In this document: positions 1,784 to 35,550 of the stretch, piece by piece
Position numbering within the stretch: the first letter of the stretch is position 1
Layout of the letters: each line of letters begins with the position of its first letter
Assembly (NCBI GenBank): GCA_965219085.1
Contig: OZ244720.1
Span: 2,240,001 to 2,304,000 of the forward strand
Direction of reading: 5' to 3'
Length of the DNA: 64,000 nucleotides
From: Dehalococcoidia bacterium
Lineage (GTDB): Bacteria > Chloroflexota > Dehalococcoidia > UBA2979
Notes under the pieces: generated by a model
Told to the model about the DNA's origin: nothing
Databases searched by the model: none
Seen by the model: only the letters and a program-made list of their open reading frames with translations
Made by a program: the position numbers and the translations under genes

Positions 1784-1993
1784 GTTCGGTCCTTCCTGGC
1801 CGGGGCATGCGCGTGCCCCCGCCCGGTGTCTTACCAGCGATACGTGCAGGGTCGCCGTGAGGTTTGGTGACATGGCGGCCGCCAGGGTCGCATCGCCTTG
1901 GCGGCATCATAGCAGCGCATGTAAGGGTCAATCGGCGATCGTTGTGCCCAGCCCCTCCGCGGGACTGGGGGATCGACCCCCGGAGGGGAGGTA

Positions 1994-2785: not shown

Positions 2786-2803
2786 TGGCGCGCCCCGCCC
2801 GTG

Positions 2804-4123
2804 CTAGTCGACGCTGCCGCGCGGCGGGTCGAAGTCGTACGGGCCGGGCAGGTTGAGGTCCTCGCCGATCTTGCGCATCGGCGGGAGCACGCGTTCGCCC
2901 ATGAGGGTGAGGCTGCTCATCGCGTCCTCGTGCGACATCGCGCCGTCGCCGTCCCACAGGAACACGGTGCCAAGCTGCAGCGTCTCGACCACGTGGCGCA
3001 GGCGCTCGATCACCGTCTCCGGGGAGCCGACGATGATGTTGTAGCGCTCGATCTGCTTGTCGTAGCTGCCGGAGAAGTCACGCTCGGCCTCGGGCACGCG
3101 TGGCTGGACCGGCTTCGGCTCGGCTTCGGCGACGCCGCGCGCCTTTGCCTGGGCGCGGTCGCGGCGCATCGGCAGCATGTCGCCCTTGCGGGGGCTGAGC
3201 CCGGGCAGGCTCTGGAGGTGCTGGCGAACTTCGCCCTGGTTGCCCTCGATGAACGGGTTCGACGGCCCCTGTAGGTACTTCCGCCCGATCTCGTAGGCCT
3301 GCTGGTCGGATTCCTCGACGTGGACCTTGAGGACGTAGCCGAAGTGCTCGGGGCCGGCCTCGTAGCCGACGTTCGAGGCGCACTCGCGGTAGTAGTCGAA
3401 GGATTCGCTGACGGCCTCGAGTTCGCCGCCGAGCATGATGTACGGGTAGCGGTGCTCGGCGGCCCAGCGCAGCGTGTTCTTGCTGAGCGTGCCGGGGATC
3501 CAGATCGGCGGGTGCGGCCGCTGCATCGGTCGCGACCATGGGTTTACGTAACGGTACTGGAAGTGCTTGCCCTCCCAGCGGAACGGGCCGTCGGTCGTCC
3601 AGGTCTTGATCACGAAGTCGTGCGCCTCCTGGAAGCGCTCCCAGTTGAACGGCGACTGCGCGTTGTGGGCCACGCTCTCGCGGCCCGTGCCTCGCACCCA
3701 GCCGGGCACGAGGCGGCCGCCGGAGATGAGGTCGATCTCCGCGAGCTCCTCGGCGAGCCACATCGGGTCCTCCCAGATCGGGAGGACGTTGCCGAGCAGC
3801 ACGATCTTCGCCTTCTTCGTGATGCGGGCGAGTATGGCGGCCTCGACGTTAATGGCGCCGCCCATGCAGAACAGGCTGGCGTGGTGCTCGTTGAGCATCA
3901 GCCCGTCGAAGCCCATCTCCTCGGCGTAGACCTTCTCGTCCAGGTAGCGGTTGTAGAGCTGGTGGGCGACGCGCGGGTTGTAGAGCCCGTTGCTCGTCCC
4001 GAGGTCGATCACGCCGGGCCCGCTGCCGGGTGCGAAGAGCTGACCGCCCTCGGTGAGGAACGCGCCGGAGATACCGGCGTCGGCATCCTGGTAGGGGCGT
4101 TCGGTGAAGTAGCCAAAGAACAC
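2804..4123 (-). CDS. LLM-class (luciferase-like) flavin-dependent oxidoreductase
   Basis: AEEMGFDGLMLNEHH, LAEELAEIDLISGGRL, PMQRPHPPIW, IVGSPETV. Confidence 0.92.
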   Translation of the reverse strand: MFFGYFTERPYQDADAGISGAFLTEGGQLFAPGSGPGVIDLGTSNGLYNPRVAHQLYNRYLDEKVYAEEMGFDGLMLNEHHASLFCMGGAINVEAAILARITKKAKIVLLGNVLPIWEDPMWLAEELAEIDLISGGRLVPGWVRGTGRESVAHNAQSPFNWERFQEAHDFVIKTWTTDGPFRWEGKHFQYRYVNPWSRPMQRPHPPIWIPGTLSKNTLRWAAEHRYPYIMLGGELEAVSESFDYYRECASNVGYEAGPEHFGYVLKVHVEESDQQAYEIGRKYLQGPSNPFIEGNQGEVRQHLQSLPGLSPRKGDMLPMRRDRAQAKARGVAEAEPKPVQPRVPEAERDFSGSYDKQIERYNIIVGSPETVIERLRHVVETLQLGTVFLWDGDGAMSHEDAMSSLTLMGERVLPPMRKIGEDLNLPGPYDFDPPRGSVD

Positions 4124-4162
4124 GGTGGCCTCCTCGAGGGCTGCGTCCGGGATGCGCGGAGT

Positions 4163-4423
4163 CTACTCCAGCGGAGCTGTGGTGCGGATGCACTCGGCGC
4201 GTCTGGCGCGGCCCCACGCCGTCCGCAACTCCGCCCGGTGCAGCGAAGCCCACTCGATCACAAGTCCGCGTGCCCGGAGTGGAAGGCGCCCGGATAGCAG
4301 ATCCAGGCTCTCGATCTCAATGGTGGCCGGGTGCTCGCCATAGCGGGCATGGAAGTGTGGCGGGGCGTGGTCGTTGAAGTACATCCGGACGACAATCCCG
4401 TAGAAGTGGCAGAGTTCAGGCAT
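4163..4423 (-). CDS. DUF4160 family protein (putative toxin-antitoxin component)
   Basis: MPELCHFYGIVVRMYFNDHAPPHFHARYG; ATG at 4423 overlaps the upstream gene stop. Confidence 0.85.
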   Translation of the reverse strand: MPELCHFYGIVVRMYFNDHAPPHFHARYGEHPATIEIESLDLLSGRLPLRARGLVIEWASLHRAELRTAWGRARRAECIRTTAPLE

Positions 4424-4706
4424 CGTCCACCGGGCCATGGACGCCCGGCATGATTTGCTCGACGGTCTTTCCGGTGAGCTGGAGGTAGAGCGCGTCGGGA
4501 CAGAGTTCGATGTCCTCGCCCCAGGCGATGGCATCGTGCGGGGCGATGCGCACTGCTTCGAAGAAGGCGCGGTCACTCCACGCCTGGAACACACCCCGAC
4601 CCGCGAGGTCGGACAGGTCGACTTCGCCGTTGGACCCGTCCTCGTACCGCATCCAGATGCGGTACCCCTGGCGGGGTTCCACCGTGGTAGGCCGGACTAC
4701 TGCCAT
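4416..4706 (-). CDS. DUF2442 family protein (DUF4160 partner)
   Basis: YRIWMRYEDGSNGEVDLSDL...IAWGEDIELCPDALY. Confidence 0.85.
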   Translation of the reverse strand: MAVVRPTTVEPRQGYRIWMRYEDGSNGEVDLSDLAGRGVFQAWSDRAFFEAVRIAPHDAIAWGEDIELCPDALYLQLTGKTVEQIMPGVHGPVDDA

Positions 4707-5443
4707 GCTGCCCCCAGGATCCGTCGCCGCTGGCAATGAGTCTAGCTGGGTGCTGAAAAAGGCGCGGCCATCTGGCAGGATAGCGAAGGCGGCGGGGGCG
4801 TAGCCTGGGAGGCAGCCCCGTGCGAGGCGACGCTGAGCGTCAGACCAACATGTTGCTGGCGGTGACGCCGGACTCCTTCATCCCGGACGACCACCCGATC
4901 CGACGCATCAAACCGATCGTCGATGCCGCGCTGCAGCGGCTCTCGCCGCTGTTCGGCACGATGTACGCAACGAGCGGGCGGCCCTCGATCCCGCCCGAGC
5001 ACCTGCTCAAGGCGAGCCTGCTGATCGCGCTCTACTCGGTGCGCAGCGAGCGCCAGTTCTGCGAGCGGCTGCGCTACGACCTGCTCTTCAAGTGGTTCTT
5101 GGACCTCAACATCTCAGACGCGCCGTTCGACGCCTCGAGCTTCTCGAAGAACCGCGAGCGCCTGCTCGCAGCCGATGTCGCGCGCGCCTTCTTCGCCGAG
5201 GTGGTGGCCGAGGCAAAGCGCCGCCGGCTGCTCTCCGCCGAGCACTTCACGGTGGACGGGACGCTGCTCGAGGCCTGGGCCTCGCTCAAGAGCTACCGCC
5301 CGCGCGACGAGCAGGAGCCACCCCTGGGCGGACGCAACCCGGATGTCGACTTCCGCGGGCGGCGGCGCAGCCGCGATACGCATGTTTCTGCGACCGACCC
5401 GGAGGCGCGGCTGTACACGAAGACACCCCAGGACGCTAAGGGG

Positions 5444-6667
5444 TCAAGCAGCGAGGTCCTCGTGGGTGTAACGGTGTCCCCAGGCGGTCGTCTCGTCGTA
5501 GGGCAAGCGGCGCTTCAGGCAGCCATGTAGGTAGCCGACGAGACGGTTGCCGAGGGCGCGGAGCGCCTGGTGGTGGAGGTCGCCCGCGGCGCGCCGCCGA
5601 TCGTAGAACTCGCGGCAGCCGGGGCTGGCCTGCAGGGAGCACAGCGCCCACTGGTCGACTGCGTCGTAGAGGCGCCGGTTGCGGACGAAGCGGGCTTTCA
5701 CGGTGTGCTTGCGGCCGGATGCTACCGTCAGCGGCGACGTGCCGGCGTAGTTCCTGCGGGACTTCGCCGACTCGTAGCGTTCGGGGTCATCCCCGAACTC
5801 GCCAAGCACCCGGGCGCCGAGGACCACGCCGAGACCGGGCAGGGAACGGTAGATACCGGCGTCCGGGTGCTGCTCAAAATGGCTCGCGAGCTCGGCCTCG
5901 AGCTCCTTGATCTGACGGTTGATCTCGCCGATCACCCTCATTGCCGCACTGGTGCTCGCGGCGAATGCCTTGCTCACCGCGGGCGGAGCCTCGAGCTGCG
6001 GTGAGCGCAGCGCGTCGCGGACCTCGGCGGCGCGCCGCTCGATGTTGCGCCGGCGGCCGCCGCGGCGCAGCGCGGAGCGGATCTGGGTGATGCTCAGCCG
6101 CGCCGCCTCGCGCGGGCCAGGCGCTGTCGCCAGCACGCCCACCGCGTCGTCGTGCGCGAGGTCGGGGAAGGCCTCCAGCGCACCCGGAAAGTACTCCCTG
6201 AGCGCGTTGCGCAGCCGGTTGGTCTGGCGGACGCGGTCCCAGATCAACTGCTGGTGGGCGCGGGCGAGGATGCGCACCGCGGCGGCTTCGTCGCTGTCGC
6301 CGGCGACCTCCCGGTGGTTGTGCCGGTCGGTGCGGACGAGGTCGGCGAGCAGCTTCGCGTCGCCGGCGTCGGACTTGGCGCCGCCGACGTGGTGGCGGTC
6401 GCGGTAACGCGACGCCGAGCGCGGGTTGATGGCGTAGACGTGGTAGCCGGCCGCGAGCAGTGCCGCGACCCAGGGGCCGCGGTCCGTCTCGATGCCGACG
6501 ATCACCTCACCCGGCCCTGAGGCGTACCCGGCGACCAGTCCGTGCAGGGCAGTGATGCCCTCCACCCCTTCGGGCAGACGCCGGGCGGCGAGCCGCTCGC
6601 CCGCGTCGTTCATGAGATGGACGTCGTGGTGGTCTTCGGACCAGTCATCGCCCAGGTACAAGGCCAT
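5444..6667 (-). CDS. IS110-family recombinase/transposase
   Basis: N-terminal DEDD RuvC-like motifs (LGDDWSEDHHDV, IGIE, KSDAGDA), SLPGLG, YAGTSP..ASG. Confidence 0.95.
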   Translation of the reverse strand: MALYLGDDWSEDHHDVHLMNDAGERLAARRLPEGVEGITALHGLVAGYASGPGEVIVGIETDRGPWVAALLAAGYHVYAINPRSASRYRDRHHVGGAKSDAGDAKLLADLVRTDRHNHREVAGDSDEAAAVRILARAHQQLIWDRVRQTNRLRNALREYFPGALEAFPDLAHDDAVGVLATAPGPREAARLSITQIRSALRRGGRRRNIERRAAEVRDALRSPQLEAPPAVSKAFAASTSAAMRVIGEINRQIKELEAELASHFEQHPDAGIYRSLPGLGVVLGARVLGEFGDDPERYESAKSRRNYAGTSPLTVASGRKHTVKARFVRNRRLYDAVDQWALCSLQASPGCREFYDRRRAAGDLHHQALRALGNRLVGYLHGCLKRRLPYDETTAWGHRYTHEDLAA

Positions 6668-6689
6668 CGTGTTTCAGTTCCTCTCCCGC

Positions 6690-6900
6690 TTCGCGCTGCT
6701 CGGTGCGACCCGGCGGGTTGGTTCCTGCGACGGCCTAATGGATCAGTGCTCGATGGCACGACACCCCATGAGTGCTGCAGAACAACCCGGAATACCAGCA
6801 GGGGCTCGGTCTTCGTGAAGCGGTCCAGAAGCCGCAGGGATCAGCTGAGAGCTCACCGGCTGGCAGGGTCCAGAACCAGTCTGCCAGAGAACCTCTGGCC
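6690..6900 (-). ncRNA. Putative IS110 bridge RNA (ends approximate)
   Basis: Two internal-loop hairpins whose guide segments match the target site and the donor junction (see findings). Confidence 0.75.
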
Positions 6901-7548
6901 GCTGGTCGGGCCCCATTAGGGGTCGGGGCAGACGGCGAAGCTCAGCTACATGGGCCATCTGCTCACCGAGAACCGTCACGGTCTGGTGCTGGACGTGGAG
7001 TTGGCCGAGGCGAACGGGTACGCCGAGCGCGAGGCGGCGGTCACGATGCTGGAGCGCAGCGTGAGCGGCTGCGGGACGCTGGGCGCCGACCGCGGCTACG
7101 ACACGCGCGGCTTCGTGGCGGCGCTGCGCGCTCGCGGCGTGACGCCGCACGTGGCGCAAAACGACCGCCGCCGCCGCAGCGCCGTGGATGGGCGCACCAC
7201 GCGGCATCGCGGCTACAGGCAGAGTCAGAAGCGGCGCAAGATCGTGGAGCAGGTCTTCGGCTGGATGAAGACCGTGGGCGGCGGGCGCAAGCTGCGCTTC
7301 GTGGGCCGCGAGCGCAACCGCTGTTGGCTGGAGCTCACCGCCGCCGCCTACAACCTCGTGCGCATGGCCACGCTCGAGACCGCCGCGGCGTAGGCGCAGT
7401 GCGCCCTCCGCCCCGCCAGGGAGCCCTCAGAGGCGCCCGGGGGCAGGTCAGGAGGCCACGATCACGAACCCGGAGGCGGCTTCAAGCCGCCTCTCGCCAC
7501 TCCGAGACCCCGGAAGGCGCTTCTTCAGCAGCCTGCTAGCATGGCTCC

Positions 7549-9234
7549 ATGGACCGCAACCGTGGTGGCCGGCCGCGCCATCCCGACGTGCTGACGCCGG
7601 CCGAGTGGCGCGTGCTCGAGGCGCTGCGCGACGGCGGGACGAACGCCGAGATCGGCGCTCGCCTCGGCCTCAGCCTCGACACGGTGAAGTACCACATCTC
7701 GAACATGCTCGCGAAGCTCGAGCTGCGCGACCGGCGCGCCCTCGCCGCCTGGCGTCCCGACGCACAGCGAGGCCGCCTCGGCGCGGTGCTCGCCGTCCCG
7801 GCTGTCTTGTGGGCGGTCGTAGGGCGGCCGCTCGTGTGGGTCGGGGTGGGAGTAGCGGCACTGGCCGGGGTGGCCGTCGTGGTGGCGGCGCTCGTGGCCC
7901 TCGAGGCAGTCGTGGAGCGGGACAGCGACGCGCCCGCTGCGGTCGCCCCGCCGCCCGCGACCGCCACGCCCACACCGGCCGTGGCGCCGACGGCGACGCC
8001 GAGCGTCTTTGCCGCCGGGCCGGCGCTGGCGCCTTCGGCGACTCCGCCAGCCGCGCCTTCGCCGACCCCGGCCGGGACACCCGAGCCGCGCGCCAGCCGG
8101 ACACCCGCAGCGCCGGCCCCCGCGCCCGGCTCTTGCGCGACACCGACCGACCCGACGTGCATCCACGCGGTATACCGGGGGGCGCCGGCCGACCACGCGC
8201 AGGTGCCCGACATCCCCGCCGACGCGCTGCTCACGCCGGCGAGTGATGGGCGCTACTACGTGGGGCGCGGGCAGCAGGTGACGGTGGTGACGGCTGCACC
8301 GCTGCCCGCCGGCTGGACGCGCTTCTGGCTGGACCGCAGCCCGCTCAAGGTCGGGGTGCCGTCGCCGACGTCGTTCGAGCAGCTGGTCCAGCCCGTTGGG
8401 ACGACCTACACGTTCACCGTCACCGACGACGAGGCTGGCGCCACGCTCATCACGTTCGACCTGACGGCGGCGCGGCCGCATCCGGTGCGGCCCACCCACA
8501 AGCCGGTGCTGGGCGACGTGGTGGTGACGACCGAGTTCGCGGTGCCAAAGTTGCGCTACAACCTCCTCGACACGGCCGGCGCAGCGGCGACCCCGGGGAG
8601 CTACGCCTTCCTGCAGGCGGCTGGCGATGTGTCGAGCGCAATCGAAAATTTCGGATTGCGCCCTGCAAAGGGCGTCGAGTTGCGCATCCATCCGACCGAC
8701 GCCTCTGGAGTGTCGCGCGCGGCCCTCTACGACACCTTGAAGGTCGGAGACGCATTCGAGTACCGCACAAATGGCCTCGACTGCTCCTTCCGCTTCAGAG
8801 TCACGAGTGTTTCTACACCCGCGTCCGTCCCGCGGAGCTACGGCCTTCACTTCGTTTCTGAGGATGGAGGGCGATGCGGAGACGCTATCGACGACCCAGC
8901 AGCAGCGAAGGATGTTGATTTCGCGTGGCTCGTTCCGCCCGGACGCGTTGGAGCGGATGGCATACGAGAGCTCATTCCCTGGGAGCCGGCAGGGAACGGT
9001 ACGTATCGGATTGGGTCCGGGGGTCGGTACGTTATCGATGTGCCTCTGGGAATGCGGATTGTGGCTAGTCCCGAGTTCTCCACTTACGGCTCTTCCATTA
9101 CGAGCGCCGTGACCCTCACAGACGAGGAAACAGGAGCCCGACTCCAGATCGATCCCGCGACAGGCGAGGTACTCGGACGTGACGCGAGTACACGGCTTGA
9201 TCCAATTGTGGATTCCATACGTCTAGCTGACTAA
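7549..9234 (+). CDS. LuxR-type HTH protein with transmembrane segment, Pro/Ala/Thr linker and large extracytoplasmic region
   Basis: LTPAEWRVLEALRDGGTNAEIGARLGLSLDTVKYHISNMLAKL, followed by a hydrophobic stretch and low-complexity linker. Confidence 0.8.
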   Translation: MDRNRGGRPRHPDVLTPAEWRVLEALRDGGTNAEIGARLGLSLDTVKYHISNMLAKLELRDRRALAAWRPDAQRGRLGAVLAVPAVLWAVVGRPLVWVGVGVAALAGVAVVVAALVALEAVVERDSDAPAAVAPPPATATPTPAVAPTATPSVFAAGPALAPSATPPAAPSPTPAGTPEPRASRTPAAPAPAPGSCATPTDPTCIHAVYRGAPADHAQVPDIPADALLTPASDGRYYVGRGQQVTVVTAAPLPAGWTRFWLDRSPLKVGVPSPTSFEQLVQPVGTTYTFTVTDDEAGATLITFDLTAARPHPVRPTHKPVLGDVVVTTEFAVPKLRYNLLDTAGAAATPGSYAFLQAAGDVSSAIENFGLRPAKGVELRIHPTDASGVSRAALYDTLKVGDAFEYRTNGLDCSFRFRVTSVSTPASVPRSYGLHFVSEDGGRCGDAIDDPAAAKDVDFAWLVPPGRVGADGIRELIPWEPAGNGTYRIGSGGRYVIDVPLGMRIVASPEFSTYGSSITSAVTLTDEETGARLQIDPATGEVLGRDASTRLDPIVDSIRLAD

Positions 9235-9317
9235 GAGCGAGGAGCAGATGCGGATGTATGGACGACCGCTCTTGCCGTCATTGGCATCGTGATGCCGTTC
9301 CCGCAGCCGCGAAAAGG

Positions 9318-10250
9318 CTAGCGGGCGATCGCGTCGACCTCGGCCATCTCCTCGGGCGTGAGCCGCCAGTCGCCGGCGGCGACGTTCGCCTCGACCTGCT
9401 CGGGCTTCGTCGCGCCGGCGATCACGCTGCCGACGAACGGCTTCGAGGAGAGCCACGCGAACGCGAGGTCGAGCAGCGTGTGGTCGTGCTCCACCGCCCA
9501 CGCGTCGAGGCGCTCGACGATGTCCCAGTTGCGGTCGCTCGCGATGCGCCCGCCCCTGGCCCTGCCGGCGAGGCGCGTGCCCTCGGGCGCCGCTTCGTTG
9601 CGGCTGTACTTGCCGGTGAGCAGGCCGCTCGCGAGGGGGAAGAACGGCAGCATGCCGAGGCCGAACGCCTCGCAGGCCGGGCCGATCTCCGCCTCGACGC
9701 CGCGCTCGAGCAGGCTGTAGTCGTTCTGCGCGGAGATGAACGGCGTGAGGTGGTCGCGCTGCGCGATGTAGTGCCCGCTCGCGATCTCCCACCCGTCGTA
9801 GTTCGAGTTGCCGAGGTAGCGCACCTTGCCGTCGCGCACGAGGTCGTCGAGGGCGCGCATGGTCTCCTCGAGCGGCGTGTCGTGGTCCGGCTGGTGGATC
9901 TGGTAGAGGTCGATGTAGTCCGTGCGGAGCCGCCGCAGGCTGTCCTCGACGGCCGTCATGATGTAGCGCCGCGAGCCGCCCGACGTGAACGGCCCCTCGC
10001 CCATCGACATGCCGAACTTGGTGGCGATGATGATGCCGTGGCGGTCCGCGCCGAGCGCGCGTCCGAGGTACTCCTCGGAGAGTGCGCCGCCGTAGATGTC
10101 GGCGGTGTCGAAGAGTGTGATGCCGAGGTCGATGGACCGGCGGACGACGGCCGTGGTCGCCTCCTGGTCCATCCGCCCGCCGAAGTTGTTGGTACCGAGT
10201 CCGACGACCGAGACCTCAAGCCCCGAGTTGCCCAGGTGGCGCGTGTCCAA
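9318..10250 (-). CDS. Aldo/keto reductase
   Basis: LGNSGLEVSVVGLG, FDTADIYG, IATKFG, SLRRLRTDYIDLYQIH; probable TTG start at 10250 after GGAGGG. Confidence 0.92.
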   Translation of the reverse strand: MDTRHLGNSGLEVSVVGLGTNNFGGRMDQEATTAVVRRSIDLGITLFDTADIYGGALSEEYLGRALGADRHGIIIATKFGMSMGEGPFTSGGSRRYIMTAVEDSLRRLRTDYIDLYQIHQPDHDTPLEETMRALDDLVRDGKVRYLGNSNYDGWEIASGHYIAQRDHLTPFISAQNDYSLLERGVEAEIGPACEAFGLGMLPFFPLASGLLTGKYSRNEAAPEGTRLAGRARGGRIASDRNWDIVERLDAWAVEHDHTLLDLAFAWLSSKPFVGSVIAGATKPEQVEANVAAGDWRLTPEEMAEVDAIAR

Positions 10251-10360
10251 TGTGCCCTCCAGCCGCGCGCGGCGCAGCGTCGCTTGCCCGATCGCATGGC
10301 GAGTTGTGTGCCGCGCGGAGTATAGAGCAGGCGCTCCCAAACGAACCCGTTGCGGGCGGC

Positions 10361-11464
10361 TCAGGCGGGCAGCGTCACCGCCGCTCCCGTCTCCGAGGAG
10401 CGCTCGATCGCCGCGAGCAGGCGGTGGCGCGTGACGGCGAGGTCGAAGCCCGGCGTGTACGCTTCGCCCGCCCCGAGCGCGTCAGCCATCCGGGCGTAGC
10501 CGTGCGCGACGTTTCGCGGCGGGCCGGACGGCGTCCCCTCGGGAGCGAGCATGTAGGCATCGGGCGGCTGCAGCTCGTCCAGCGCCTCGCCGCCGCGCGC
10601 GCCGAGCAGCCGGTTCGGCCCGATGTTCGAGGAGGGCGCGGTGAGGAAGAGCGCGCCCTCGCGGCCGAAGATCTCGAGTCGCGTACCGGTCGCGTGCGCG
10701 GGCACGCTCGCCACCTGGATCGCCGCCTCGGCGCCGCTCGCGAAGCGGCCCGCGACGGCGATGCTGTCCGGTGCGTCGACGGGGACATCCAGCCCGGTCT
10801 CCTCGTCGCGCCACTCCGTGATGCGCGTGGTCACGCGCGCGGAGACCTCGGTCATCTCGCCGAGGATCGCGCAGAGCGCGTCGATCGCGTGCCCGCCCGC
10901 GATCGTGAGCGGGTTCGCTCCGTTCGCGCGCTCGGCCTGCCAGATCCGGCCCGCGCCACGCTCGAGCACCGCCTGCGTCATCACGCTCAGGTTCGCTGTC
11001 AGCACCTCGCCCACGTACCCCTGCGCGACGAGGTCGCGGGCGTAGCGGATGCTGGGGTCACTGCGTCCCTGGAGCCCGACGGCCGTGCGCAGCGACTGCT
11101 CGCGCGCGAGGTCCGCCATCTCCTCGGCCTCCGCGAGCGTGGCCCCCAGCGGCCACTCGCAGAACACGTCCTTGCCCGCGCGCAGCGCCGCCATCACGAG
11201 CTGGTGATGCAGCGGCACGCGCACCGACACGACGACGAGGTCGATGTCCGGGTGAGCCACTATCGCGTCGATGTCGTGGAACGCGAGGGGCGCACCGAAG
11301 CGCTCGGCGGAGGCCTTCGCCGTGTCCTCGTGCGCTGTGCAGATCGCCACGAGCTCGTAGTCGGGCAGCGCGTCGAGGGCGGGCACATGGGCGTTGGCGC
11401 CCCAGCCGCTGCCCCCGGTCGTCACGGTCGCGCCCACGATGCCAACGCGGATGGGGCCTGCCAT
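10361..11464 (-). CDS. Gfo/Idh/MocA family oxidoreductase
   Basis: IRVGIVGA, AGKDVFCEWPL, GGHAID. Confidence 0.9.
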   Translation of the reverse strand: MAGPIRVGIVGATVTTGGSGWGANAHVPALDALPDYELVAICTAHEDTAKASAERFGAPLAFHDIDAIVAHPDIDLVVVSVRVPLHHQLVMAALRAGKDVFCEWPLGATLAEAEEMADLAREQSLRTAVGLQGRSDPSIRYARDLVAQGYVGEVLTANLSVMTQAVLERGAGRIWQAERANGANPLTIAGGHAIDALCAILGEMTEVSARVTTRITEWRDEETGLDVPVDAPDSIAVAGRFASGAEAAIQVASVPAHATGTRLEIFGREGALFLTAPSSNIGPNRLLGARGGEALDELQPPDAYMLAPEGTPSGPPRNVAHGYARMADALGAGEAYTPGFDLAVTRHRLLAAIERSSETGAAVTLPA

Positions 11465-28337: not shown

Positions 28338-28979
28338 TCAGTCCGTTCGCGTCACGAACGCCTCGCCGTACTGACGGGCGTGCTCCGCGCGCCGCACGTC
28401 GAGGGCGGCGCGCCCCTCTGGTGTATCGAGGCCGTCGAGGAGCATCACGAGCGCATCCTCGTCGTTGTCTTTGTAGTAGCGGCGCAGCCGGCCGTGGCTG
28501 CGGAACCCGTAGCGCGCGTAGAGGTTGACCGCGCGCGCGTTCGTCGTGCGCACCTCGAGCGCGACGCTGTCGAGGTCGGCCGCGACGGCGAGGTCGCACA
28601 CGGCCAGCAGCAGCGCCTGGCCGATGCCGAGCCCGTGGTACTGCGGCGCAACGGCGATGGTCACGAGGTGCAGTTGGTCGTGGGTGAACCATGCGCCGGC
28701 GTAGCCGCCGATCGGCGCGCCGGCCGGGCCGAACGGCAGGCGGTCGGGGAGGAACTGCACCATCCGCGCCCACCAGCCGCGCACCTGCGGCGGCGCCGCG
28801 GCCGACTCCCCGACATCGGCCACGAGGAACTGCGCGAGCCCGTTCAGCAGCTCGCGCCGGAATCCCGAGCGAGGACTCTGCGATCCGTAGGCGTCGCGCT
28901 CGACGCGCACCGCGGCGCGCACGTCGCCGGGACGCATCGGGCGAATGGTGACGGTGCTCGGGCGAGCGAGGGCGCACAT
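28338..28979 (-). CDS. rimI: Ribosomal-protein-alanine N-acetyltransferase RimI (GNAT)
   Basis: LHLVTIAVAPQYHGLGIG, LEVRTTNARAVNLY..YGF...RRYYKDNDEDALVM. Confidence 0.85.
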   Translation of the reverse strand: MCALARPSTVTIRPMRPGDVRAAVRVERDAYGSQSPRSGFRRELLNGLAQFLVADVGESAAAPPQVRGWWARMVQFLPDRLPFGPAGAPIGGYAGAWFTHDQLHLVTIAVAPQYHGLGIGQALLLAVCDLAVAADLDSVALEVRTTNARAVNLYARYGFRSHGRLRRYYKDNDEDALVMLLDGLDTPEGRAALDVRRAEHARQYGEAFVTRTD

Positions 28980-29093
28980 GTGGCGATCGTATCGCGTATG
29001 CGACGAACGTACCGCGCCATCACCACCTCGGCCCTCCCGCGCGCAGCGTCTACCGTCCGCCGCACGCAGACCCGAGTACCGAGGAGGACCACG

Positions 29094-29552
29094 ATGGAAG
29101 ACCACAACGAACTGACGCTGAGCGACGCCGAAGGCGAAGACCTGCCCGACGAGGCGCTCGCCGAACTTGCCGCGATCGGGGACGACGAGCCCAACGCCGA
29201 GGCCACCGCCGAGCACACCTCGGAGGAGATCGCGAGCCTGCGCGCGGACCTCGACGCCGAGCGCGCCGCCCGGCGGACCGCCGTCGCGCGTTACCGCGAT
29301 GCGGTGCTGGCGGCGGAGCCGGCGCTGCCGCCGGAGCTCATCGCCGGCGACAGCCTCGCCGAGGTCGACGCCTCGGTGGAGGCGGCGCGGCGCGCCGTGG
29401 CGCAGATCCGCGAGCGCCTCGCGACCGAGGCGGACGAGGCCGCCGCGCGCGGCTTCCCCGTCGGCGCACCCGGCCGCCGGGAGCCGAGCGCCGAGGGGAT
29501 GTCGGCGACCGAGAAGATCGCGTTCGGACTGGAGCGACGCGCCGCAAGCTGA
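29094..29552 (+). CDS. Putative capsid scaffolding protein
   Basis: Acidic N-terminus, coiled-coil-like middle, C-terminal PVGAP.R...MSATEKIAFGL; directly upstream of the capsid gene; GAGGAGG RBS. Confidence 0.65.
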   Translation: MEDHNELTLSDAEGEDLPDEALAELAAIGDDEPNAEATAEHTSEEIASLRADLDAERAARRTAVARYRDAVLAAEPALPPELIAGDSLAEVDASVEAARRAVAQIRERLATEADEAAARGFPVGAPGRREPSAEGMSATEKIAFGLERRAAS

Positions 29553-29674
29553 GCCCTCGTGCCCTGGCGCCCTGGCGCCCTGGTGCCTTCGCGCCCTCGC
29601 CCGGCCGCAGGTGGCCGGGCGGGGGCCGTCCGGAGCATCCGATTCGTCGATGCGTGCCACTTTGACCTTCGGAC

Positions 29675-29688
29675 AGAACACACGTTCC
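29675..29688. promoter_or_regulatory. LexA-type SOS box upstream of the capsid gene
   Basis: aGAACacacGTTCc just 5' of a -10-like TAGGCT (29691-29696). Confidence 0.65.
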
Positions 29689-29756
29689 CATAGGCTCCCT
29701 CCCACAACGCATCGAAGCAGGCGCGCGGCACGAAACCGCGCGCGGGGAGGGACGCA

Positions 29757-30647
29757 ATGGCGCTGACACTGACCGAGGGGGCCAAGCTCTCCAACGACGT
29801 ACTCCAGCAGGGCGTGATCGAGACCGTGATCAAGGACAGCCCCATCCTGCAACGGCTCCCGTTCATCGAGATCGTCGGGAACGGGCTCACCTACAACCGC
29901 GAGAACGCCGCGGCCACCGCTGCCTTCTACGCCGTCGGGGACACGTGGGCGGAGAGCACGCCGACGTTCACGCAGGTGACCGCCTCGCTCACCATCCTCG
30001 GCGGCGACGCGGACATCGATAACTACATCGCGCGCACCCGCAACAACGTCCAGGACATCGAGGCGGCCGTCGTCGAGCTCAAGGCGAAGGCCGTCCAGCA
30101 GCAGTTCGACGAGACCTTCATCGACGGCGACGCCGACACCAACTCGAAGGCCTTCAACGGCATCGACGAGCTGTGCGCCGCCGGCCAGACCACCTCGATG
30201 GGCAACAACGGCGCGAAGCTCACCCTCGACAAGCTCGACGAGCTGGTGGACCTCGTGCGTGGCGGGAAGCCGGAGATGCTGCTCATGTCGCGTCGCTCGC
30301 GGCGCACGCTGAACAGCCTCGCGCGCGCCGCGGGCTCGGGCGTGGTGGAGCACGACCGCGACGAGTTCGGCCGCATGGTCGCGTACTACGACGGCATCCC
30401 GATCGGGGTGAGCGACTACATCAAGGACACCCAGAGCCGGGGCACGGCGCGCAACACTTCGGTGATCTACGCGCTGCAGTTCGGCGAGGGCGCCGTCGCG
30501 GGGCTCACCGCGCCCGGCGGCGTGACCATCGAGCGCGTCGGCGCGCTGGAGACGAAGGACGCCACGCGCGTGCGCGTGAAGTGGTACGTCTCCGTCGCGC
30601 TCTTCAACGAACTCAAGCTCGCGAAGCTCACCGGCGTGCAGGCCTAA
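29757..30647 (+). CDS. Phage major capsid protein (HK97-fold type)
   Basis: MALTL.E.AKL...GVIETVIKDSPILQRLPF, LTILGGDADID, FIDGDADTNSKAFNGI, LTLDKLDEL, YDGIPI, RVKWYVSVA. Confidence 0.85.
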   Translation: MALTLTEGAKLSNDVLQQGVIETVIKDSPILQRLPFIEIVGNGLTYNRENAAATAAFYAVGDTWAESTPTFTQVTASLTILGGDADIDNYIARTRNNVQDIEAAVVELKAKAVQQQFDETFIDGDADTNSKAFNGIDELCAAGQTTSMGNNGAKLTLDKLDELVDLVRGGKPEMLLMSRRSRRTLNSLARAAGSGVVEHDRDEFGRMVAYYDGIPIGVSDYIKDTQSRGTARNTSVIYALQFGEGAVAGLTAPGGVTIERVGALETKDATRVRVKWYVSVALFNELKLAKLTGVQA

Positions 30648-30686
30648 GCGGTCCGCACGCCCCATCGACACGCCCGGGAGGCGACC

Positions 30687-31319
30687 ATGCACCTGACCGA
30701 GATGCGGACCCGCGTCCGCCGCGACCTTCGAGACACGGACCCCGCGGACGAGCGCTGGTCCGACGACGAGCTCGACCGGCACATCGAGCGCGCCGTGCGC
30801 GAGCTCTCGCTCGGCGCGCCCGTCGAGGCGGTCGCGACGCTCACGACGGCTGCCGGCAGCCGCGACCTCGACGTGTCGGCGCTCGCCAGCCGCGTCTCGA
30901 TCGACGCGGTCGAGTATCCGGCGGGGCAATACCCGCCGGCGTTCGCGGTGTTCTCGTCATGGGGCGACACGCTCACGCTGGTCGTCGACCGGGCGCCGCA
31001 CGCGGGCGAGCGCGCGACCGTCTCCTACTCGAAGCTCCACACCCTGACCGACGACGCCTCGACGCTGCCTGCGGCCCTCGAGGAGATCGTCGCGACGGGC
31101 GCGGGTGGGTACGCCGCGCTGGAGTGGGCCTCGTTCGCCACGAACCGCGTCAACGCGGGCGGGACGGACACCTGGCGGCACTATCACATCTGGGCGCAGG
31201 AGCGCCTCGCCGCCTTCGCACGCGCGCTCGCCAAGCACGGGCGCGAGCGGCGGGTGCGGTCGCGCCAGCTCTACCGGCCCGCGGGCGACGCCGTTGGCGC
31301 GCCCGCCCCGGGCGGGTAG
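30687..31319 (+). CDS. Putative head-tail adaptor/connector-like protein
   Basis: MHLTEMRTRVRRDLRD....RWSDDELDRHIERAV resembles adaptor N-termini; follows the capsid gene. Confidence 0.55.
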   Translation: MHLTEMRTRVRRDLRDTDPADERWSDDELDRHIERAVRELSLGAPVEAVATLTTAAGSRDLDVSALASRVSIDAVEYPAGQYPPAFAVFSSWGDTLTLVVDRAPHAGERATVSYSKLHTLTDDASTLPAALEEIVATGAGGYAALEWASFATNRVNAGGTDTWRHYHIWAQERLAAFARALAKHGRERRVRSRQLYRPAGDAVGAPAPGG

Positions 31320-31325
31320 CCCGCG

Positions 31326-33302
31326 ATGCGCGGGCTCACACCCACGCTCGACGCGGCTCGGCGCTCGCCGAGCGTGCAGCCGTACCTGCGCGTGCAGCTC
31401 CACGACCGCGACGTCGGCTCGCTGCGGCTGCGCTGGCGACGCGTCTACTCGGGCCCCGAGCCCGACGGCCCGTGCGCCGCGGCGGTCGCCGCTGACGGCG
31501 CGCTGCTGCGGGTGCGCATCGACCCCTCGACGGGCGCGCTCACGCGCCAGCGCGTCGCGTCGCCGGGCGCGGTGAGCGACTACGGGGCGTGGACGCCCGT
31601 GGCGACCGTCGCCGTCGGCCCGCGCGTCGGCCTCGCCGCGCGCGGCACGCGCGGCATGATCGCCTCGGTGCGGGCCGATGGCGTGACCGTCGACGTGCGC
31701 GAGAGCACCGACGGCGGCGCGACATTCGGGGCGGCCAGCGTGCTCGCGGTCGCGTCGGGAGTGGTCACCGCGGTTGCATGCTCGATGGCCCCGGACGGGA
31801 CTGCCGCGGTGATCTACGCCGTTGGCGGCGTCGTCTACGCGGTCCGCCGCTTCGGCACCGGGCGCTGGCTCGCGCCGGCTGCGTGGTCGCGCTCGCTCGC
31901 GACGGTGAACGCGCTCGCCGCGTCATTCGAGGTGGACCACAACGTGCTGATCTCCGGCACGAATGCCGCCGGCGACACCGGCGTGTGGTCGACGATCTAC
32001 GGCGCGGGCGGCGCGTACCCCCCGGGGAGGTGGCGGCCGCTGGCCGAGGTGGTCTCGGCCGCCCCGGGCACCCGCACCACGTACCTCGCGAGCGGGACGG
32101 CGAACGTCGACGCGCCGCAGAACGTGTTCGTAGAGTCGTACGCCGGTGGCGGGGCGTACGACCGCGTGCACATCGGGGCGGGCGTGGGAGGCACCGCGTA
32201 CCGGGACCAGCTGTGGCGGAACCCGAGGCCATTCGGTCACGAGTCGCCCCACGGGCTCGCGATCGCGTCCGGGCGCGGCGGCGCCTGGCTGGTCTCGCCC
32301 AGCGCTGTGTGGCACGCGCCGTACCCGGAGCCCGCGGCCGACCTCGGCGCTGACGTGCTCGAGGCGACGCTCATCGAGGGGCTGCGCGGGGGACGGATGC
32401 GCCTGGTGCTGCGCAACGACGACGGGCGGTACGGCCCGGATGCCGCACCGGTCGCCCTCGCGGCGGGTGGCGAACTGCGGCCGGGCCCCGGCTACCTCAC
32501 GAGCGCGGGCGAGGAGTCCTCGGACGGGCGCGCGTTCTGGATCACCACCGTGCGGCGCCGCTACGAGCCCGGCGGCTCGACCGTCGAGATCGAGGCAGTC
32601 GACGGCTGGGGGTTGCTCGACGCGTGGACCGCTCCGCGCCAGTTCGTGTGGGCGGCGGGCGAGGCGAGCGCGTCGAGGGTGCTCACGGGGGTCATGCAGC
32701 ATGCAGGCGTACGGCTCGCAAGCGGCAGCTCGAGCGTCGAGTCCGCGACGTTGCGGCCGGCGTTCACGATGCGCGCAGGCGAGCGCGGCTCGACCGCGGT
32801 CCGGCGGCTCCTCGCGATGCTGCCCGACGAGGTGATCATGCGTGACCACTGGGCGTTCCTGGCCGAACCAGCCGCGAACGACGCGCCCGTGGCCAGTTTT
32901 GGAGACGACGACCCCCTCGTCCGCATCACCGTGGAGTCGGGCGCCCCTGCCACCGGATGGGCGCGCATCTTTGGCGCGGGCGTGCTGGCCGAGGCCGTCC
33001 ACGACGACGCGCTCGCCGAGGGTGGCGGCACGGCCATCGTCGTCGACGGGAACGTCGACGCGCAGGCGCGCGCCGACGCCCGCGCGGACGCAGTGCTGCG
33101 CCGTTCGCAGCTGGCTCTCGGGCGCGGGGAGGTGGTCGTGCGGCCGCACCCGGGCCTCGAGGTCGGCGACGTGGTCGCGATCGCCTCGAAGCGCGCGGGA
33201 CTCGTCGAGGCGCGGTTCCGCGCGTCCGGGCTGCACCTTCGCTACGTGCGCGGCGGCCGGCGCGCGGTCTACGAGCAGCGCATCGCGCTCAGCGACGTGT
33301 AG
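31326..33302 (+). CDS. Putative virion structural protein (beta-rich N-half with Asp-box, hub-like C-half)
   Basis: ESTDGGATF Asp-box; C-terminal PHPGLEVGDVVAI; tight operon spacing. Confidence 0.5.
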   Translation: MRGLTPTLDAARRSPSVQPYLRVQLHDRDVGSLRLRWRRVYSGPEPDGPCAAAVAADGALLRVRIDPSTGALTRQRVASPGAVSDYGAWTPVATVAVGPRVGLAARGTRGMIASVRADGVTVDVRESTDGGATFGAASVLAVASGVVTAVACSMAPDGTAAVIYAVGGVVYAVRRFGTGRWLAPAAWSRSLATVNALAASFEVDHNVLISGTNAAGDTGVWSTIYGAGGAYPPGRWRPLAEVVSAAPGTRTTYLASGTANVDAPQNVFVESYAGGGAYDRVHIGAGVGGTAYRDQLWRNPRPFGHESPHGLAIASGRGGAWLVSPSAVWHAPYPEPAADLGADVLEATLIEGLRGGRMRLVLRNDDGRYGPDAAPVALAAGGELRPGPGYLTSAGEESSDGRAFWITTVRRRYEPGGSTVEIEAVDGWGLLDAWTAPRQFVWAAGEASASRVLTGVMQHAGVRLASGSSSVESATLRPAFTMRAGERGSTAVRRLLAMLPDEVIMRDHWAFLAEPAANDAPVASFGDDDPLVRITVESGAPATGWARIFGAGVLAEAVHDDALAEGGGTAIVVDGNVDAQARADARADAVLRRSQLALGRGEVVVRPHPGLEVGDVVAIASKRAGLVEARFRASGLHLRYVRGGRRAVYEQRIALSDV

Positions 33303-33311
33303 GAGGCCCCG

Positions 33312-33518
33312 ATGATCGAACGCGCCACCCTCGAAGCCTTCGACGCGGCGACGCACCTAGCGACCGTGCGGTTCGCCGGCTCACTCACCTCGGTGGTGCG
33401 CGGCGTCCCCGTCTCGCGCGCCATCCCGGCCGCCGAGCTGGTCACGGGCCGGCGGGTGGCGGTGGCCCTGTTCGACCCCGGCCACCCCCTCGATGCGATG
33501 GTCGTGGGGGTGCACTGA
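33312..33518 (+). CDS. Small beta-strand protein, possible OB-fold spike-like component
   Basis: AGGAGG RBS; MIERATLEAFDAATHLATVRF...GRRVAVALFD. Confidence 0.55.
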   Translation: MIERATLEAFDAATHLATVRFAGSLTSVVRGVPVSRAIPAAELVTGRRVAVALFDPGHPLDAMVVGVH

Positions 33519-33527
33519 CCGACCTGG

Positions 33528-34604
33528 CTACGGCGCGGTGTCACCCTCAAACAGCGTGGGCTGCGCGCCATTCGACCCGGCCGAGGGCTCCTCGGCGGCG
33601 TGGTTGTAGGCCATACCGAGGTGGTCGTAGGCGAAGCGGGACGCCACGCGCCCGCGCGGGGTGCGCTGCAGGAAGCCGATCTTGAGCAGGTACGGCTCGT
33701 ACACGTCCATGATCGTGTCGGGCTCCTCGGACACCGCCGCGGCCAGCGTCTCGAGGCCGGCCGGCCCGCCCCCGAAGCGGTCCACGAGCACACGCAGCAA
33801 CTCGCGGTCCATCGCATCCAGCCCCAACTCGTCGATCTCCAACTGCGCCAGCGCCTCGTCGGCGACCGCGGCGGTGATGACGCCGTCCGCGCGCACCTCG
33901 GCGTAGTCACGCACGCGCCGCAGCAGGCGGTTGGCGACACGCGCAGTCCCGCGCGAGCGCCGCGCGATGCCCTCCACGCCGCCGTCGTCGATGGCGCAGC
34001 CGATCACGGCCGCCGAGCGCTCGACGATGCGCGCGAGCGCCTGCTCATCGTAGAAGTCGAGCCGCCACGTCGCGCCGAAGCGCTCGCGCAGGGGCTGGGA
34101 GACGAGGGCGTAGCGCGTCGTGGCGCCGATCAGCGTGAAGCGGTTGAGCTTGAGCCGCACATCGCGCGCCTTCGGCCCGGAGCCGAGGATGATGTCGAGC
34201 GCCCAGTCCTCCATCGCCGGGTACAGGATCTCCTCGACGGGCCGCGGGAGCCGATGCACCTCGTCGATGAACAGCACGTCGCCGGACTGCAGGCTCGTGA
34301 GCACCGCGGCGAGGTCGCCGGCGCGCTCGATGGCGGGGCCCGAGGTGACGCGGATCGAGACGCCCATCTCGGAGGCGATGATCATCGCGAGCGTCGTCTT
34401 GCCGAGGCCCGGCGGCCCGTGGATGAGGACGTGGTCGAGCGGCTCGCCACGCGCGAGCGCCGCCTCGATGCCGATCCGCAGCGACGCCTTGACGGTGTCC
34501 TGGCCGAAGTACTCGTCGAGCCGCCGTGGACGCAGCGAGGGTTCGACCGTCACGTCGCCCGGAGTTTGCGTTCGCGCCAGCGGACCGCGTTGCGTGTCGT
34601 TCAC
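33528..34604 (-). CDS. ruvB: Holliday junction branch migration helicase RuvB
   Basis: [50 protein letters not shown]. Confidence 0.97.
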
Positions 34605-34660
34605 GCCTGTCCTCGATCGCACGGCTCTCTGCCGCGCTCCCCACCGAGGCGTCAGTATAG

Positions 34661-34697: not shown

Positions 34698-35252
34698 TCA
34701 GTCTTGCTGAGGATTGCTATGGACGCTCTCGAGGGTCGTCGTGGAGGGAAGGGACATCGTCTCGATGATCAGTTGGCAGATTCTTTGGCCTGGATACAAT
34801 CTCAGCGTGAATGGCCCGGCATTAGTGAGTTCGAGTTGCAGGCGCTCGTGGAACGTCGGATGCACAGTGGGAGCCGACTGATGGACGGAGAGGCCGAGCC
34901 GTGCTGGCGTACTCCGTCCCTCAACACGAGCAGCCAGGAAGTTCGGGAGGCCAATAGTTTCGCGTGTCCAAGCGAGCGCGAATTCGCCGGGCCGCAACGG
35001 AAAGGAGTCTCCCTCCTCGATCTCCGTGACCACACTGAAGTCTCGCAGGGCGTCCATCACGGCTCGCGAATCACGCGTGTCAATCGATGTCTCTGCTGCC
35101 TTCCCACCAGGGACGACCACCGTCTGGAAGTCGTTGGCAAGCGTCAGATCGATGGTCGAGGGCGATACAGCCTCAAGTGCGGGAACTGGGTCGATGATCA
35201 GACGCTCTGACCTGATCAGCGACCAAATCTCTTGATCGGACAGGATCGCCAT
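34698..35252 (-). CDS. dcd: dCTP deaminase (trimeric dUTPase fold)
   Basis: ILSDQEI, SPSTIDLTL, LRPGEFALAWTRE, EGRSTPARLGL, LYPGQRICQL; lower GC than flanks. Confidence 0.85.
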   Translation of the reverse strand: MAILSDQEIWSLIRSERLIIDPVPALEAVSPSTIDLTLANDFQTVVVPGGKAAETSIDTRDSRAVMDALRDFSVVTEIEEGDSFPLRPGEFALAWTRETIGLPNFLAARVEGRSTPARLGLSVHQSAPTVHPTFHERLQLELTNAGPFTLRLYPGQRICQLIIETMSLPSTTTLESVHSNPQQD

Positions 35253-35253
35253 G

Positions 35254-35550
35254 CTAGGCCTGTATCAAGTCCTGGGAGACGAGCAGTCGCTCACCGGATG
35301 GGAAATCAACGAGCCAATTCGCATCATTGTCGTCCGCAGTGCCTACTTTCATTGCCCGTACAAGCTGTTCTGGTACTCGGAAGTGCCTGGAGGAAGCGAT
35401 AATGATCCGCGTCCCTTCCACTCCTCTGACGACGCAGGCGGCCTCACCTCCCGGCAAGCTGCTGGCTTCCTCACACCTTACCCACGTACGTTCCGGCCTT
35501 GGGAGGAATCGCGGAATCGTGATTTCTGGCATTGCTACCTCGTCCCTCAC
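35254..35550 (-). CDS. Hypothetical protein, probably co-transcribed with dcd
   Basis: Stop lies 1 bp before the dcd ATG; same low-GC patch. Confidence 0.55.
   Translation of the reverse strand: MRDEVAMPEITIPRFLPRPERTWVRCEEASSLPGGEAACVVRGVEGTRIIIASSRHFRVPEQLVRAMKVGTADDNDANWLVDFPSGERLLVSQDLIQA

Follow-up and report, generated by a model that had tools for sequence, protein, structure and literature searches.

A probably domesticated, phage-derived gene system, possibly of gene transfer agent type, at two chromosomal loci in Dehalococcoidia

The concept of gene transfer agents (GTAs) and viriforms, phage-derived particles that are retained by their host, is described in PMC9662315, PMC6821227 and PMC5721377. 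Here we analyzed a stretch of 64,000 nucleotides from the genome of a Dehalococcoidia bacterium (contig OZ244720.1, positions 2,240,001 to 2,304,000; hereafter the window), which contains an operon of five phage-like genes, O1 to O5, between the host genes rimI and ruvB at window positions 29094 to 33518. A portal and terminase locus belonging to it lies 605 kb away in the same genome, which consists of a single contig of 3.3 Mb with a GC content of about 72%. We interpret both loci as one ancient, vertically inherited, phage-derived particle system that is retained by its Dehalococcoidia host and is possibly GTA-like, and give this interpretation a probability of about 0.6. Its parts differ in certainty: domestication and vertical inheritance are very likely, the building of a DNA-filled particle is predicted from the genes with moderate confidence, and the transfer of genes is a tentative prediction.

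GTAs such as that of Rhodobacter capsulatus (RcGTA), BaGTA, VSH-1, Dd1 and VTA have phage-derived genes for capsid, portal and terminase in the host chromosome, with no modules for integration or replication. These genes descend vertically with the host, evolve under purifying selection and are distributed over more than one locus. The Dehalococcoidia system resembles them in all of these respects. It differs in its host, a member of the Chloroflexota, and in the ancestry of its capsid (epsilon15-gp7 type) and adaptor (SU10 type). RcGTA has a siphovirus-like tail, whereas the system described here has no tail tube or tape measure; it is set apart from RcGTA by this gene content, not by sequence comparison with RcGTA proteins, and does not form an RcGTA-type head-tail cluster. 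The genomic marks of a GTA, i.e. cell-encoded phage genes, vertical descent, purifying selection and no unit capable of self-transmission, are all seen, and packaging and delivery of host DNA would be the predicted function.

With the podoviruses epsilon15 and SU10 the system shares the capsid family, the adaptor family, a predicted scaffold-dependent assembly and the absence of a protease gene between portal and capsid. Podoviruses of this type close the adaptor with nozzle, needle and fibres. In the Dehalococcoidia system, in contrast, the next gene after the adaptor encodes a predicted hub of the gp27/gp44 type, a fold from long-tailed phages, contractile injection systems and type VI secretion systems. 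The complexes gp27-gp5, Mu gp44-gp45 and P2 gpD-gpV are similar in that the C-terminal part of O4 is modelled as a hub fold and is followed by the gene for an OB fold that resembles the N-terminal domain of spikes. Unlike in these complexes the putative spike O5 consists of a 68-residue OB domain only, without beta-helix or tip, O4 carries an N-terminal propeller, and tube and baseplate genes are missing. Satellites such as capsid-forming phage-inducible chromosomal islands (cf-PICIs) and defective prophages such as PBSX also keep small sets of head and packaging genes in the chromosome and form particles that may not be fully autonomous. The tail of PBSX is complete and contractile. Satellites possess integrase and replication genes as well as att sites and move horizontally, whereas none of these features lies near either Dehalococcoidia locus and descent appears to be vertical. 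Encapsulins likewise are chromosomal shell proteins of the HK97 fold, with a cargo protein encoded beside them. They lack portal, terminase, scaffold and adaptor, all of which are present and co-inherited in the Dehalococcoidia system.

Our literature searches, in which subscription journals were thinly covered, turned up no description of a GTA or of a conserved capsid cluster for the class Dehalococcoidia or the phylum Chloroflexota. A preprint on the element IME1 (10.64898/2026.09.15.751708) was the only related publication found, and this element is described there as different, filament-like and without hallmark genes of tailed phages.

Proteins of the operon and of the packaging locus

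All five open reading frames (ORFs) of the operon are located on the plus strand and are intact, with zero internal stops. An earlier reading of the window made by a model without database searches (the sequence-only reading) had described five co-directional intact ORFs with host-like GC content, and their coordinates, frames and GC content were verified. O2 (29757..30647, 296 amino acids, aa) is identified by matches above curated cut-offs as an HK97-type major capsid protein of the epsilon15 gp7 family. It shows an equivalog-level match of 203.4 bits to NF045672 (MCP_gp7_epsi_15, cut-off 75) and further matches to TIGR01554 (32 bits, cut-off 27.5), Pfam Phage_capsid PF05065 (2.6e-12, 47.2 bits, cut-off 24.2), PF20911 (33.3 bits, cut-off 27) and phrog_212 (1.5e-72). 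Against PDB sequences the O2 profile gave one weak match, the major capsid protein 8cjz_Y (E 0.006), and the single sequence gave chance-level matches only. The capsid gene is present as a single copy, and no second Phage_capsid match was found genome-wide. O3 (30687..31319, 210 aa) matches Pfam SU10_adaptor (1.5e-8, 35.8 bits, cut-off 27) with residues 1–189, essentially over its whole length, and was assigned as a head-to-tail adaptor of the SU10 type. O1 (29094..29552, 152 aa) has an acidic N-terminus, is rich in Ala, Arg and Glu, and had no match in Pfam, PHROGs or NCBIfam scans. Since its homologues are always placed between portal and capsid in the contiguous clusters of other lineages, we call it scaffold-like and infer a scaffold role from this position and from its composition.

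The largest protein, O4 (31326..33302, 658 aa), belonged to no family in Pfam, PHROGs and NCBIfam scans, and its profile matched nothing among PDB sequences. An AlphaFold model based on 23 homologues reached a predicted local distance difference test score (pLDDT) of 91.9 and a predicted template modelling score (pTM) of 0.87. Comparison of this model with PDB using Foldseek assigned residues ~330–658 to the gp27 / Mu gp44 / VgrG hub fold (E 1e-10 to 2e-16, ~340 columns), with matches to 7aef_q (2.1e-16), 3cdd (9e-14), Mu gp44 (1wru, 7e-13) and T4 gp27 (1k28_D, 3.5e-10). Residues 1 to ~330 form a beta-propeller in the model that matches sialidases at ~1e-8. Judged by its modelled structure O4 is thus a member of the tail-hub fold family with a propeller fused to its N-terminus.

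O5 (33312..33518, 68 aa) is modelled as a five-stranded OB fold (pLDDT 92.9). Its best Foldseek match in PDB is the Mu baseplate chain 9ki1_V (7e-3), and P2 gpV was matched at 0.023. Against the viral structures of BFVD, 7 of the matches at ranks 3–20 are gp5/Vgr OB-fold, baseplate V or Val-Gly-repeat proteins; only weak E-values were obtained in this library (4e-4 to 1e-2), which is usual for an OB fold of 68 residues. From the model, and leaning partly on the position of the gene beside the hub gene, O5 is probably a spike or plug domain under the hub. A prediction of a 1:1 complex between the O4 hub domain and O5 scored 0.00 and counts neither for nor against this assignment. The labels of the sequence-only reading therefore held for all five genes: capsid and adaptor by family match, hub-like O4 and the OB fold of O5 by models, and scaffold-like O1 by position and composition only. 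Its description of a nearly tailless particle also agrees with our data, the encoded tail consisting of adaptor, hub and OB domain.

The packaging genes are located on the minus strand at G000:C1:1664561-1668140 (locus 2). A genome-wide scan with SPP1_portal returned a single match (4.1e-11), which is the portal gene of this locus and is also matched by phrog_64 (7.5e-20). The same strand carries the large terminase gene terL (phrog_7579, 5.3e-9), a gene for a Cys-rich zinc-ribbon/helix-turn-helix (Zn-HTH) protein of 127 aa, and a terS-like gene that was detected by tblastn with the G034 protein (4.6e-6) and whose homologue in G038 matches the terS family phrog_1889 (6.6e-9). TerL had no Pfam or NCBIfam match and its sequence matched nothing in PDB, so that it was recognised only via PHROGs and its conserved motifs. 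In an alignment of 18 diverse stop-free sequences with a coverage of at least 85%, the motifs RQxGKNE, LLExDExQD, GTxW, GxDxxG, VDxTGxG and GHDD, which correspond to the ATPase and nuclease signatures, are fully or almost fully conserved. Together the two loci comprise nine intact genes. The neighbours of locus 2 encode ABC transporters, a PDZ protein and insertion sequence (IS) transposases. The IS transposase genes (DDE_Tnp_1 and others) adjoin the terS end of the packaging locus (G000:C1:1669601-1671600, and L100:13706-15575) and may have mediated the rearrangement separating the two modules.

The sequence-only reading had left two alternatives, namely a GTA whose portal and terminase are encoded elsewhere or a portal-less protein shell. 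The search of the genome for orphan portal and large terminase genes recovered both in locus 2, and the first alternative was thereby confirmed with respect to these genes, which co-occur with the capsid. A portal-less shell or an encapsulin is ruled out by this co-occurrence.

Other phage functions were sought in the whole genome. Only two tyrosine recombinases are present, one at a distance of 69 kb from the operon and the other at 2.2 Mb. The tape measure family PF10145 and the terminase and portal families PF03237 and PF04860 had no match genome-wide. Library scans of both loci and their neighbours revealed no tube, sheath or fibre gene, and no integration or replication gene near either locus. 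The absence of a nearby integrase and of a tape measure, as noted before from the letters, is consistent with these results. The system is not an intact temperate prophage, as there is no contiguous genome of integrase, replication and virion genes (lysis genes were not systematically searched for).

Distribution, descent and selection

We analyzed the occurrence of the two modules in 41 relatives, of which 30 contain the capsid gene, 33 the portal gene and 36 terL; most genomes without one of them also lack the others. For a survey of the class we used an even sample of 251 Dehalococcoidia genomes with a completeness of at least 85%. The capsid was found in 150 and the portal in 157 of these genomes. 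Both genes were present in 140, only the capsid in 10, only the portal in 17 and neither in 84. When the unpublished genome G240, which is positive for both, is removed, the numbers change to 149/250 for the capsid, 156/250 for the portal and 139/250 for both. Nearly all carriers contain one copy, carriers include genomes of 0.8–1.0 Mb, and both modules are kept together across at least 21 families. Outside the class 12 sampled genomes from six families gave matches with 47–57% identity.

The order O1–O5 is kept across the class, and rimI and ruvB are kept as flanking genes within the genus. From the gene orders that are intact in many genomes and in viral contigs we deduced the ancestral order terS, terL, Zn-HTH, portal, scaffold, capsid, (accessory), adaptor, hub, OB. 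In several families ruvB is located just downstream of the OB gene in the same direction, at a distance of 73 bp in L055 (13993-15345) and also in L089 and L096. The link between the cluster and ruvB predates the family.

On a tree of 65 capsid sequences from 21 GTDB-type families the family label has to change 21 times, where 20 is the lowest possible number and 500 shuffles gave 48–59 changes. The tree contains 60 hand-chosen sequences (at most 4 per family from 20 families, with families of at least two carriers preferred) and 5 from the own family of the source genome. Likewise the distances of capsid, adaptor and hub correlate with those of RuvB with Mantel r values of 0.94, 0.88 and 0.95, respectively, and none of 2000 permutations reached values as high. 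This analysis used 15 of ~77 loci; identical capsids had been removed, and capsid, adaptor, hub and RuvB all had to be full-length. Across the 15 loci capsid and RuvB change at a similarly slow pace (maximum p-distance 0.33 versus 0.38). Furthermore the GC content of the cluster follows that of its flanks with r 0.96 over a range of 0.48–0.75 (49 loci, each 15 kb or longer; a few genomes are represented twice). Because related genomes are not independent of each other, the evidence for descent is given as counts without p-values. Genus synteny, class-wide conservation and the congruence of the capsid tree with host families all support the vertical inheritance that had been proposed for the operon.

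Selection was assessed by pairwise comparison with five close relatives using the ratio of nonsynonymous to synonymous substitutions (dN/dS) according to Nei and Gojobori (NG86). The values are 0.25–0.38 for the scaffold-like O1, 0.20–0.28 for the capsid O2, 0.12–0.20 for the adaptor O3, 0.24–0.29 for the hub O4 and 0.07–0.11 for the OB protein O5, in comparison to 0.11–0.20 for ruvB and 0.17–0.27 for rimI; as absolute values they are rough, and safe conclusions can be drawn only by setting them against those of the flanking genes. In two further clades the median dN/dS is 0.15–0.34 and 0.07–0.14. The phage-like genes evolve under purifying selection like their housekeeping neighbours, and the relaxed selection that would speak for decay was not found. 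The synonymous divergence (dS) of the capsid gene from close relatives is 0.15–0.20, about half that of the operon neighbours and flanks (0.27–0.59), with a GC content at third codon positions (GC3) of 0.96. This low dS may reflect codon-level constraint from high expression.

These data also bear on the possibility that the genes are a non-functional remnant of an ancient prophage whose decay is still incomplete. In favor of a remnant, several genomes of the same genus show possible frameshifts or truncations: the hub is split into two frames in G004, the capsid into two frames in one G012 copy, terL of G017 contains a TAG, a portal was found neither in G017 nor in G015, and terL is truncated in G009. 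They could represent real decay or assembly errors in metagenome-assembled genomes (MAGs). In addition the genus g56 contains portal fragments without a capsid match, and the families f23 (0/15), f24 (0/6) and f28 (0/6) have neither gene. However, the nine genes are intact in the source genome, dN/dS is similar to that of housekeeping neighbours in three clades, and capsid divergence is as slow as that of RuvB. Under neutral decay both modules would not have persisted together in 140 of 251 genomes from at least 21 families. We therefore regard a remnant as highly improbable. In two complete 1.5-Mb g56 genomes we found only a partial portal (G070:C1:373039-373884 and G140:C1:337486-338280), in one case with a TAG stop; these fragments look like remnants after loss of the system.

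The distance between the modules was determined for the 87 genomes in which a single contig carries both capsid and portal; four genomes that consist of one contig only (including G014, G078 and G173) were taken as circular. Capsid and portal are at most 3 kb apart in 29, 3–15 kb in 28, 15–100 kb in 19 and more than 100 kb in 11 genomes. The distance is alike within a genus, with ~43–53 kb in most g12 and ~1.8 kb in most g81 genomes. Within some clusters further genes are inserted. In G034 (L032:10467-13380) a ChaB-like gene, a gene for a PAP2 membrane protein, speD and speE are located between scaffold and capsid, and in G006 (L022:10482-11492) an IS-type transposase gene lies between capsid and adaptor, all names being read from the sequence. 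Many lower-GC lineages contain three accessory genes of ~154, 228 and 78 aa between capsid and adaptor, e.g. at L028:8200-9583. Their products may function in decoration or binding; those of G038 (154, 228, 78 aa) have no homologues in the source genome.

Viral databases contain relatives of the cluster. IMG/VR contains 80 loci that carry the hub gene and keep the same gene order, most of them being short pieces of the cluster; the three accessory genes occur in 24, 13 and 22 of them, respectively (L106-L160 among them). The contig L172 (13.7 kb, GC 0.46) encodes at positions 1941-10647 hub, OB protein, ArdC-N, a tyrosine integrase (1.2e-35), Phage_rep_O, pol-beta-thumb, terS, terL and portal, and is likely a small temperate virus or mobile element, perhaps of 17–18 kb if circular. 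L163 also carries an integrase. The loci L164-L170, L173 and L175-L179 form a divergent subgroup with the order capsid, adaptor, OB, a ~1.3-kb gene and hub, in which the hub is 26–29% identical. Cultured phages reach a capsid identity of only ~40%, and tblastn with O3 and O4 found no match in 50,697 phage records.

The question therefore arises whether the system is still a virus or depends on one, for example as a temperate phage, a satellite or a split prophage with cooperating parts. The 80 IMG/VR loci with the same gene order, the integrases of L172 and L163 and the phage-like distance of at most 3 kb between capsid and portal in 29 of 87 genomes would agree with this idea. Against it, the modules of the source genome are separated by 605 kb, and no recombinase is closer to the operon than 69 kb. 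Each genome has a single copy, the capsid tree agrees with host families, and GC content is ameliorated to each host. Host flanks are conserved, host genes are interleaved in the cluster, and the hub of the integrase-bearing relatives is only ~30% identical to O4. On this evidence we consider a virus or virus-dependent element very unlikely. As the sequence-only reading would predict, the closest homologues are chromosomal syntenic copies, not genes of complete prophages. The mobile relatives share the virion module, which speaks for its ability to form a functional particle and marks the likely ancestor.

Proposed particle and its possible service to the host

Assembly would start with scaffold and capsid protein forming a procapsid on the portal, which would be filled with DNA by the terS-like protein and TerL. 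The adaptor ring would then close the portal, and a gp27-like hub trimer with the OB domain as its plug would dock straight onto the adaptor without tube, sheath or tape measure. We infer this hub-on-adaptor architecture from the gene content. The propeller is a possible cell-binding part. Since the two loci are 605 kb apart and lack integration and replication genes, such a particle could not carry its own genes as a unit and could not spread as a virus. It would consequently be kept because of a service to the host, and GTA-like packaging and delivery of host DNA would be the most likely use.

A domesticated system may also serve a function other than transfer, such as an anti-phage device (e.g. 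particles wasting or hijacking the resources of an invader), a PBSX-like particle for killing or lysis whose packaged DNA is not delivered productively, or a particle for DNA export or storage. Vertical inheritance and purifying selection fit such functions equally well, productive DNA injection is not assured because no recognisable fibre or tail tube is encoded, and retention in genomes of 0.8–1.0 Mb points to a strong benefit, not to which benefit. However, PADLOC gave only two matches for the nine proteins, both at chance level (E 0.0017 and 0.0058), and the conserved catalytic motifs of the terminase together with the terS-like gene point to DNA packaging. Hub and spike-type OB domain are used by phages to engage and open the cell envelope, and the combination of propeller-hub and OB domain would correspond to this apparatus. 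A non-transfer function is in our view unlikely, but clearly less so than a remnant or a virus.

Several observations weigh against a retained, GTA-like particle system, among them the gene breaks in the same genus described above. Synonymous divergence is probably underestimated at a GC3 of ~0.95. The role of O5 is ambiguous: its profile had one weak match among PDB sequences, the capsid decoration protein 8cjz_B (E 0.22), which belongs to the same PDB entry as the best capsid match 8cjz_Y, and capsid decoration is an uncertain alternative to a spike or plug. Contiguous copies in other lineages might still be mobile, given the integrase-bearing relatives L172 and L163. No lysis gene, regulator or receptor-binding fibre turned up, though lysis genes were not systematically searched for. 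Finally the particles, their hub-on-adaptor build, packaged DNA, expression and transfer are all predictions from the genes. The stretch was matched in 22 sequencing records from 9 studies, all of them contigs and none RNA, and these are uninformative on expression.

The most specific form of our interpretation is an ancient GTA of independent origin in Dehalococcoidia and a few other Chloroflexota families. In its particle, which would represent a new architecture, the SU10-type adaptor of an epsilon15-type capsid would be capped directly by a propeller-hub and OB plug without a tube. Such a GTA would have co-diverged with the host families, its benefit would be great enough for retention in genomes of 0.8–1.0 Mb, and its genes would have become scattered over the chromosome in the manner of normal host genes. 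We put this forward as a doubtful but possible scenario. Only few lineages are known to possess domesticated phage particles that move host DNA. A further one of independent origin would open a new route of gene exchange in an environmentally important, mostly uncultured class that includes organohalide respirers as well as sponge and subsurface symbionts. It would also offer a datable case of virus-to-host domestication with visible stages, from integrase-bearing relatives through contiguous clusters and clusters with interleaved host genes to modules hundreds of kb apart. A hub placed directly on an adaptor would be a minimal DNA delivery machine and of interest to phage structural biology. 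In addition, virus detection pipelines already file these clusters as viral (80 IMG/VR loci), and if they were recognised as host genes, the virome and provirus counts of the class could be corrected.

Flanks and local features of the window

The operon is located between divergent rimI and convergent ruvB, as had been described. The gene rimI (28338..28982, minus strand) encodes the ribosomal-protein-S18 alanine N-acetyltransferase (TIGR01575, 96.7 bits, cut-off 86.4; GNAT Pfam families). Its start is 111 bp from O1, close to the earlier estimate of about 115 bp. The stop codon of O5 is 9 bp from ruvB (33528..34622, minus strand; RuvB_N 1.7e-74, AAA_lid_4 and RuvB_C). This ruvB is the sole copy in the genome with a RuvB_N score of 251.7 bits, the other two RuvB_N matches reaching only 48.9 and 26.3 bits, and it is separated from ruvA by 676 kb.

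The GC content is 0.68–0.76 in the operon and 0.72–0.75 in the flanks, and GC3 is 0.92–0.96 in four of the five operon genes, matching the adjacent host genes. Upstream of the start codons of O1 and O2 we found ribosome-binding sites of the GGAGG type. A scan of positions 28800-33800 revealed no promoter-like site, and a single terminator-like site at chance level. The gap of 204 bp between O1 and O2 (29553-29756) contains a short repeat of the GCCCTGG type and two GC-rich hairpins, one of them right before the ribosome-binding site of the capsid gene. Repeat and hairpins may control the ratio of scaffold to capsid expression. In G018 the same gap measures ~1 kb and contains no ORF that passed the filter used.

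On the far side of ruvB, between this gene and a DehI-like gene, lies an island of low GC content (34698-35550, ~0.61 in comparison to 0.72). It encodes a dCTP deaminase (TIGR02274, 1.7e-35) and an ORF of 98 aa without a family, and a PADLOC search of this dcd island gave no meaningful match. The island looks like a recent insertion, because in G018 and G014 ruvB directly adjoins the DehI-like gene.

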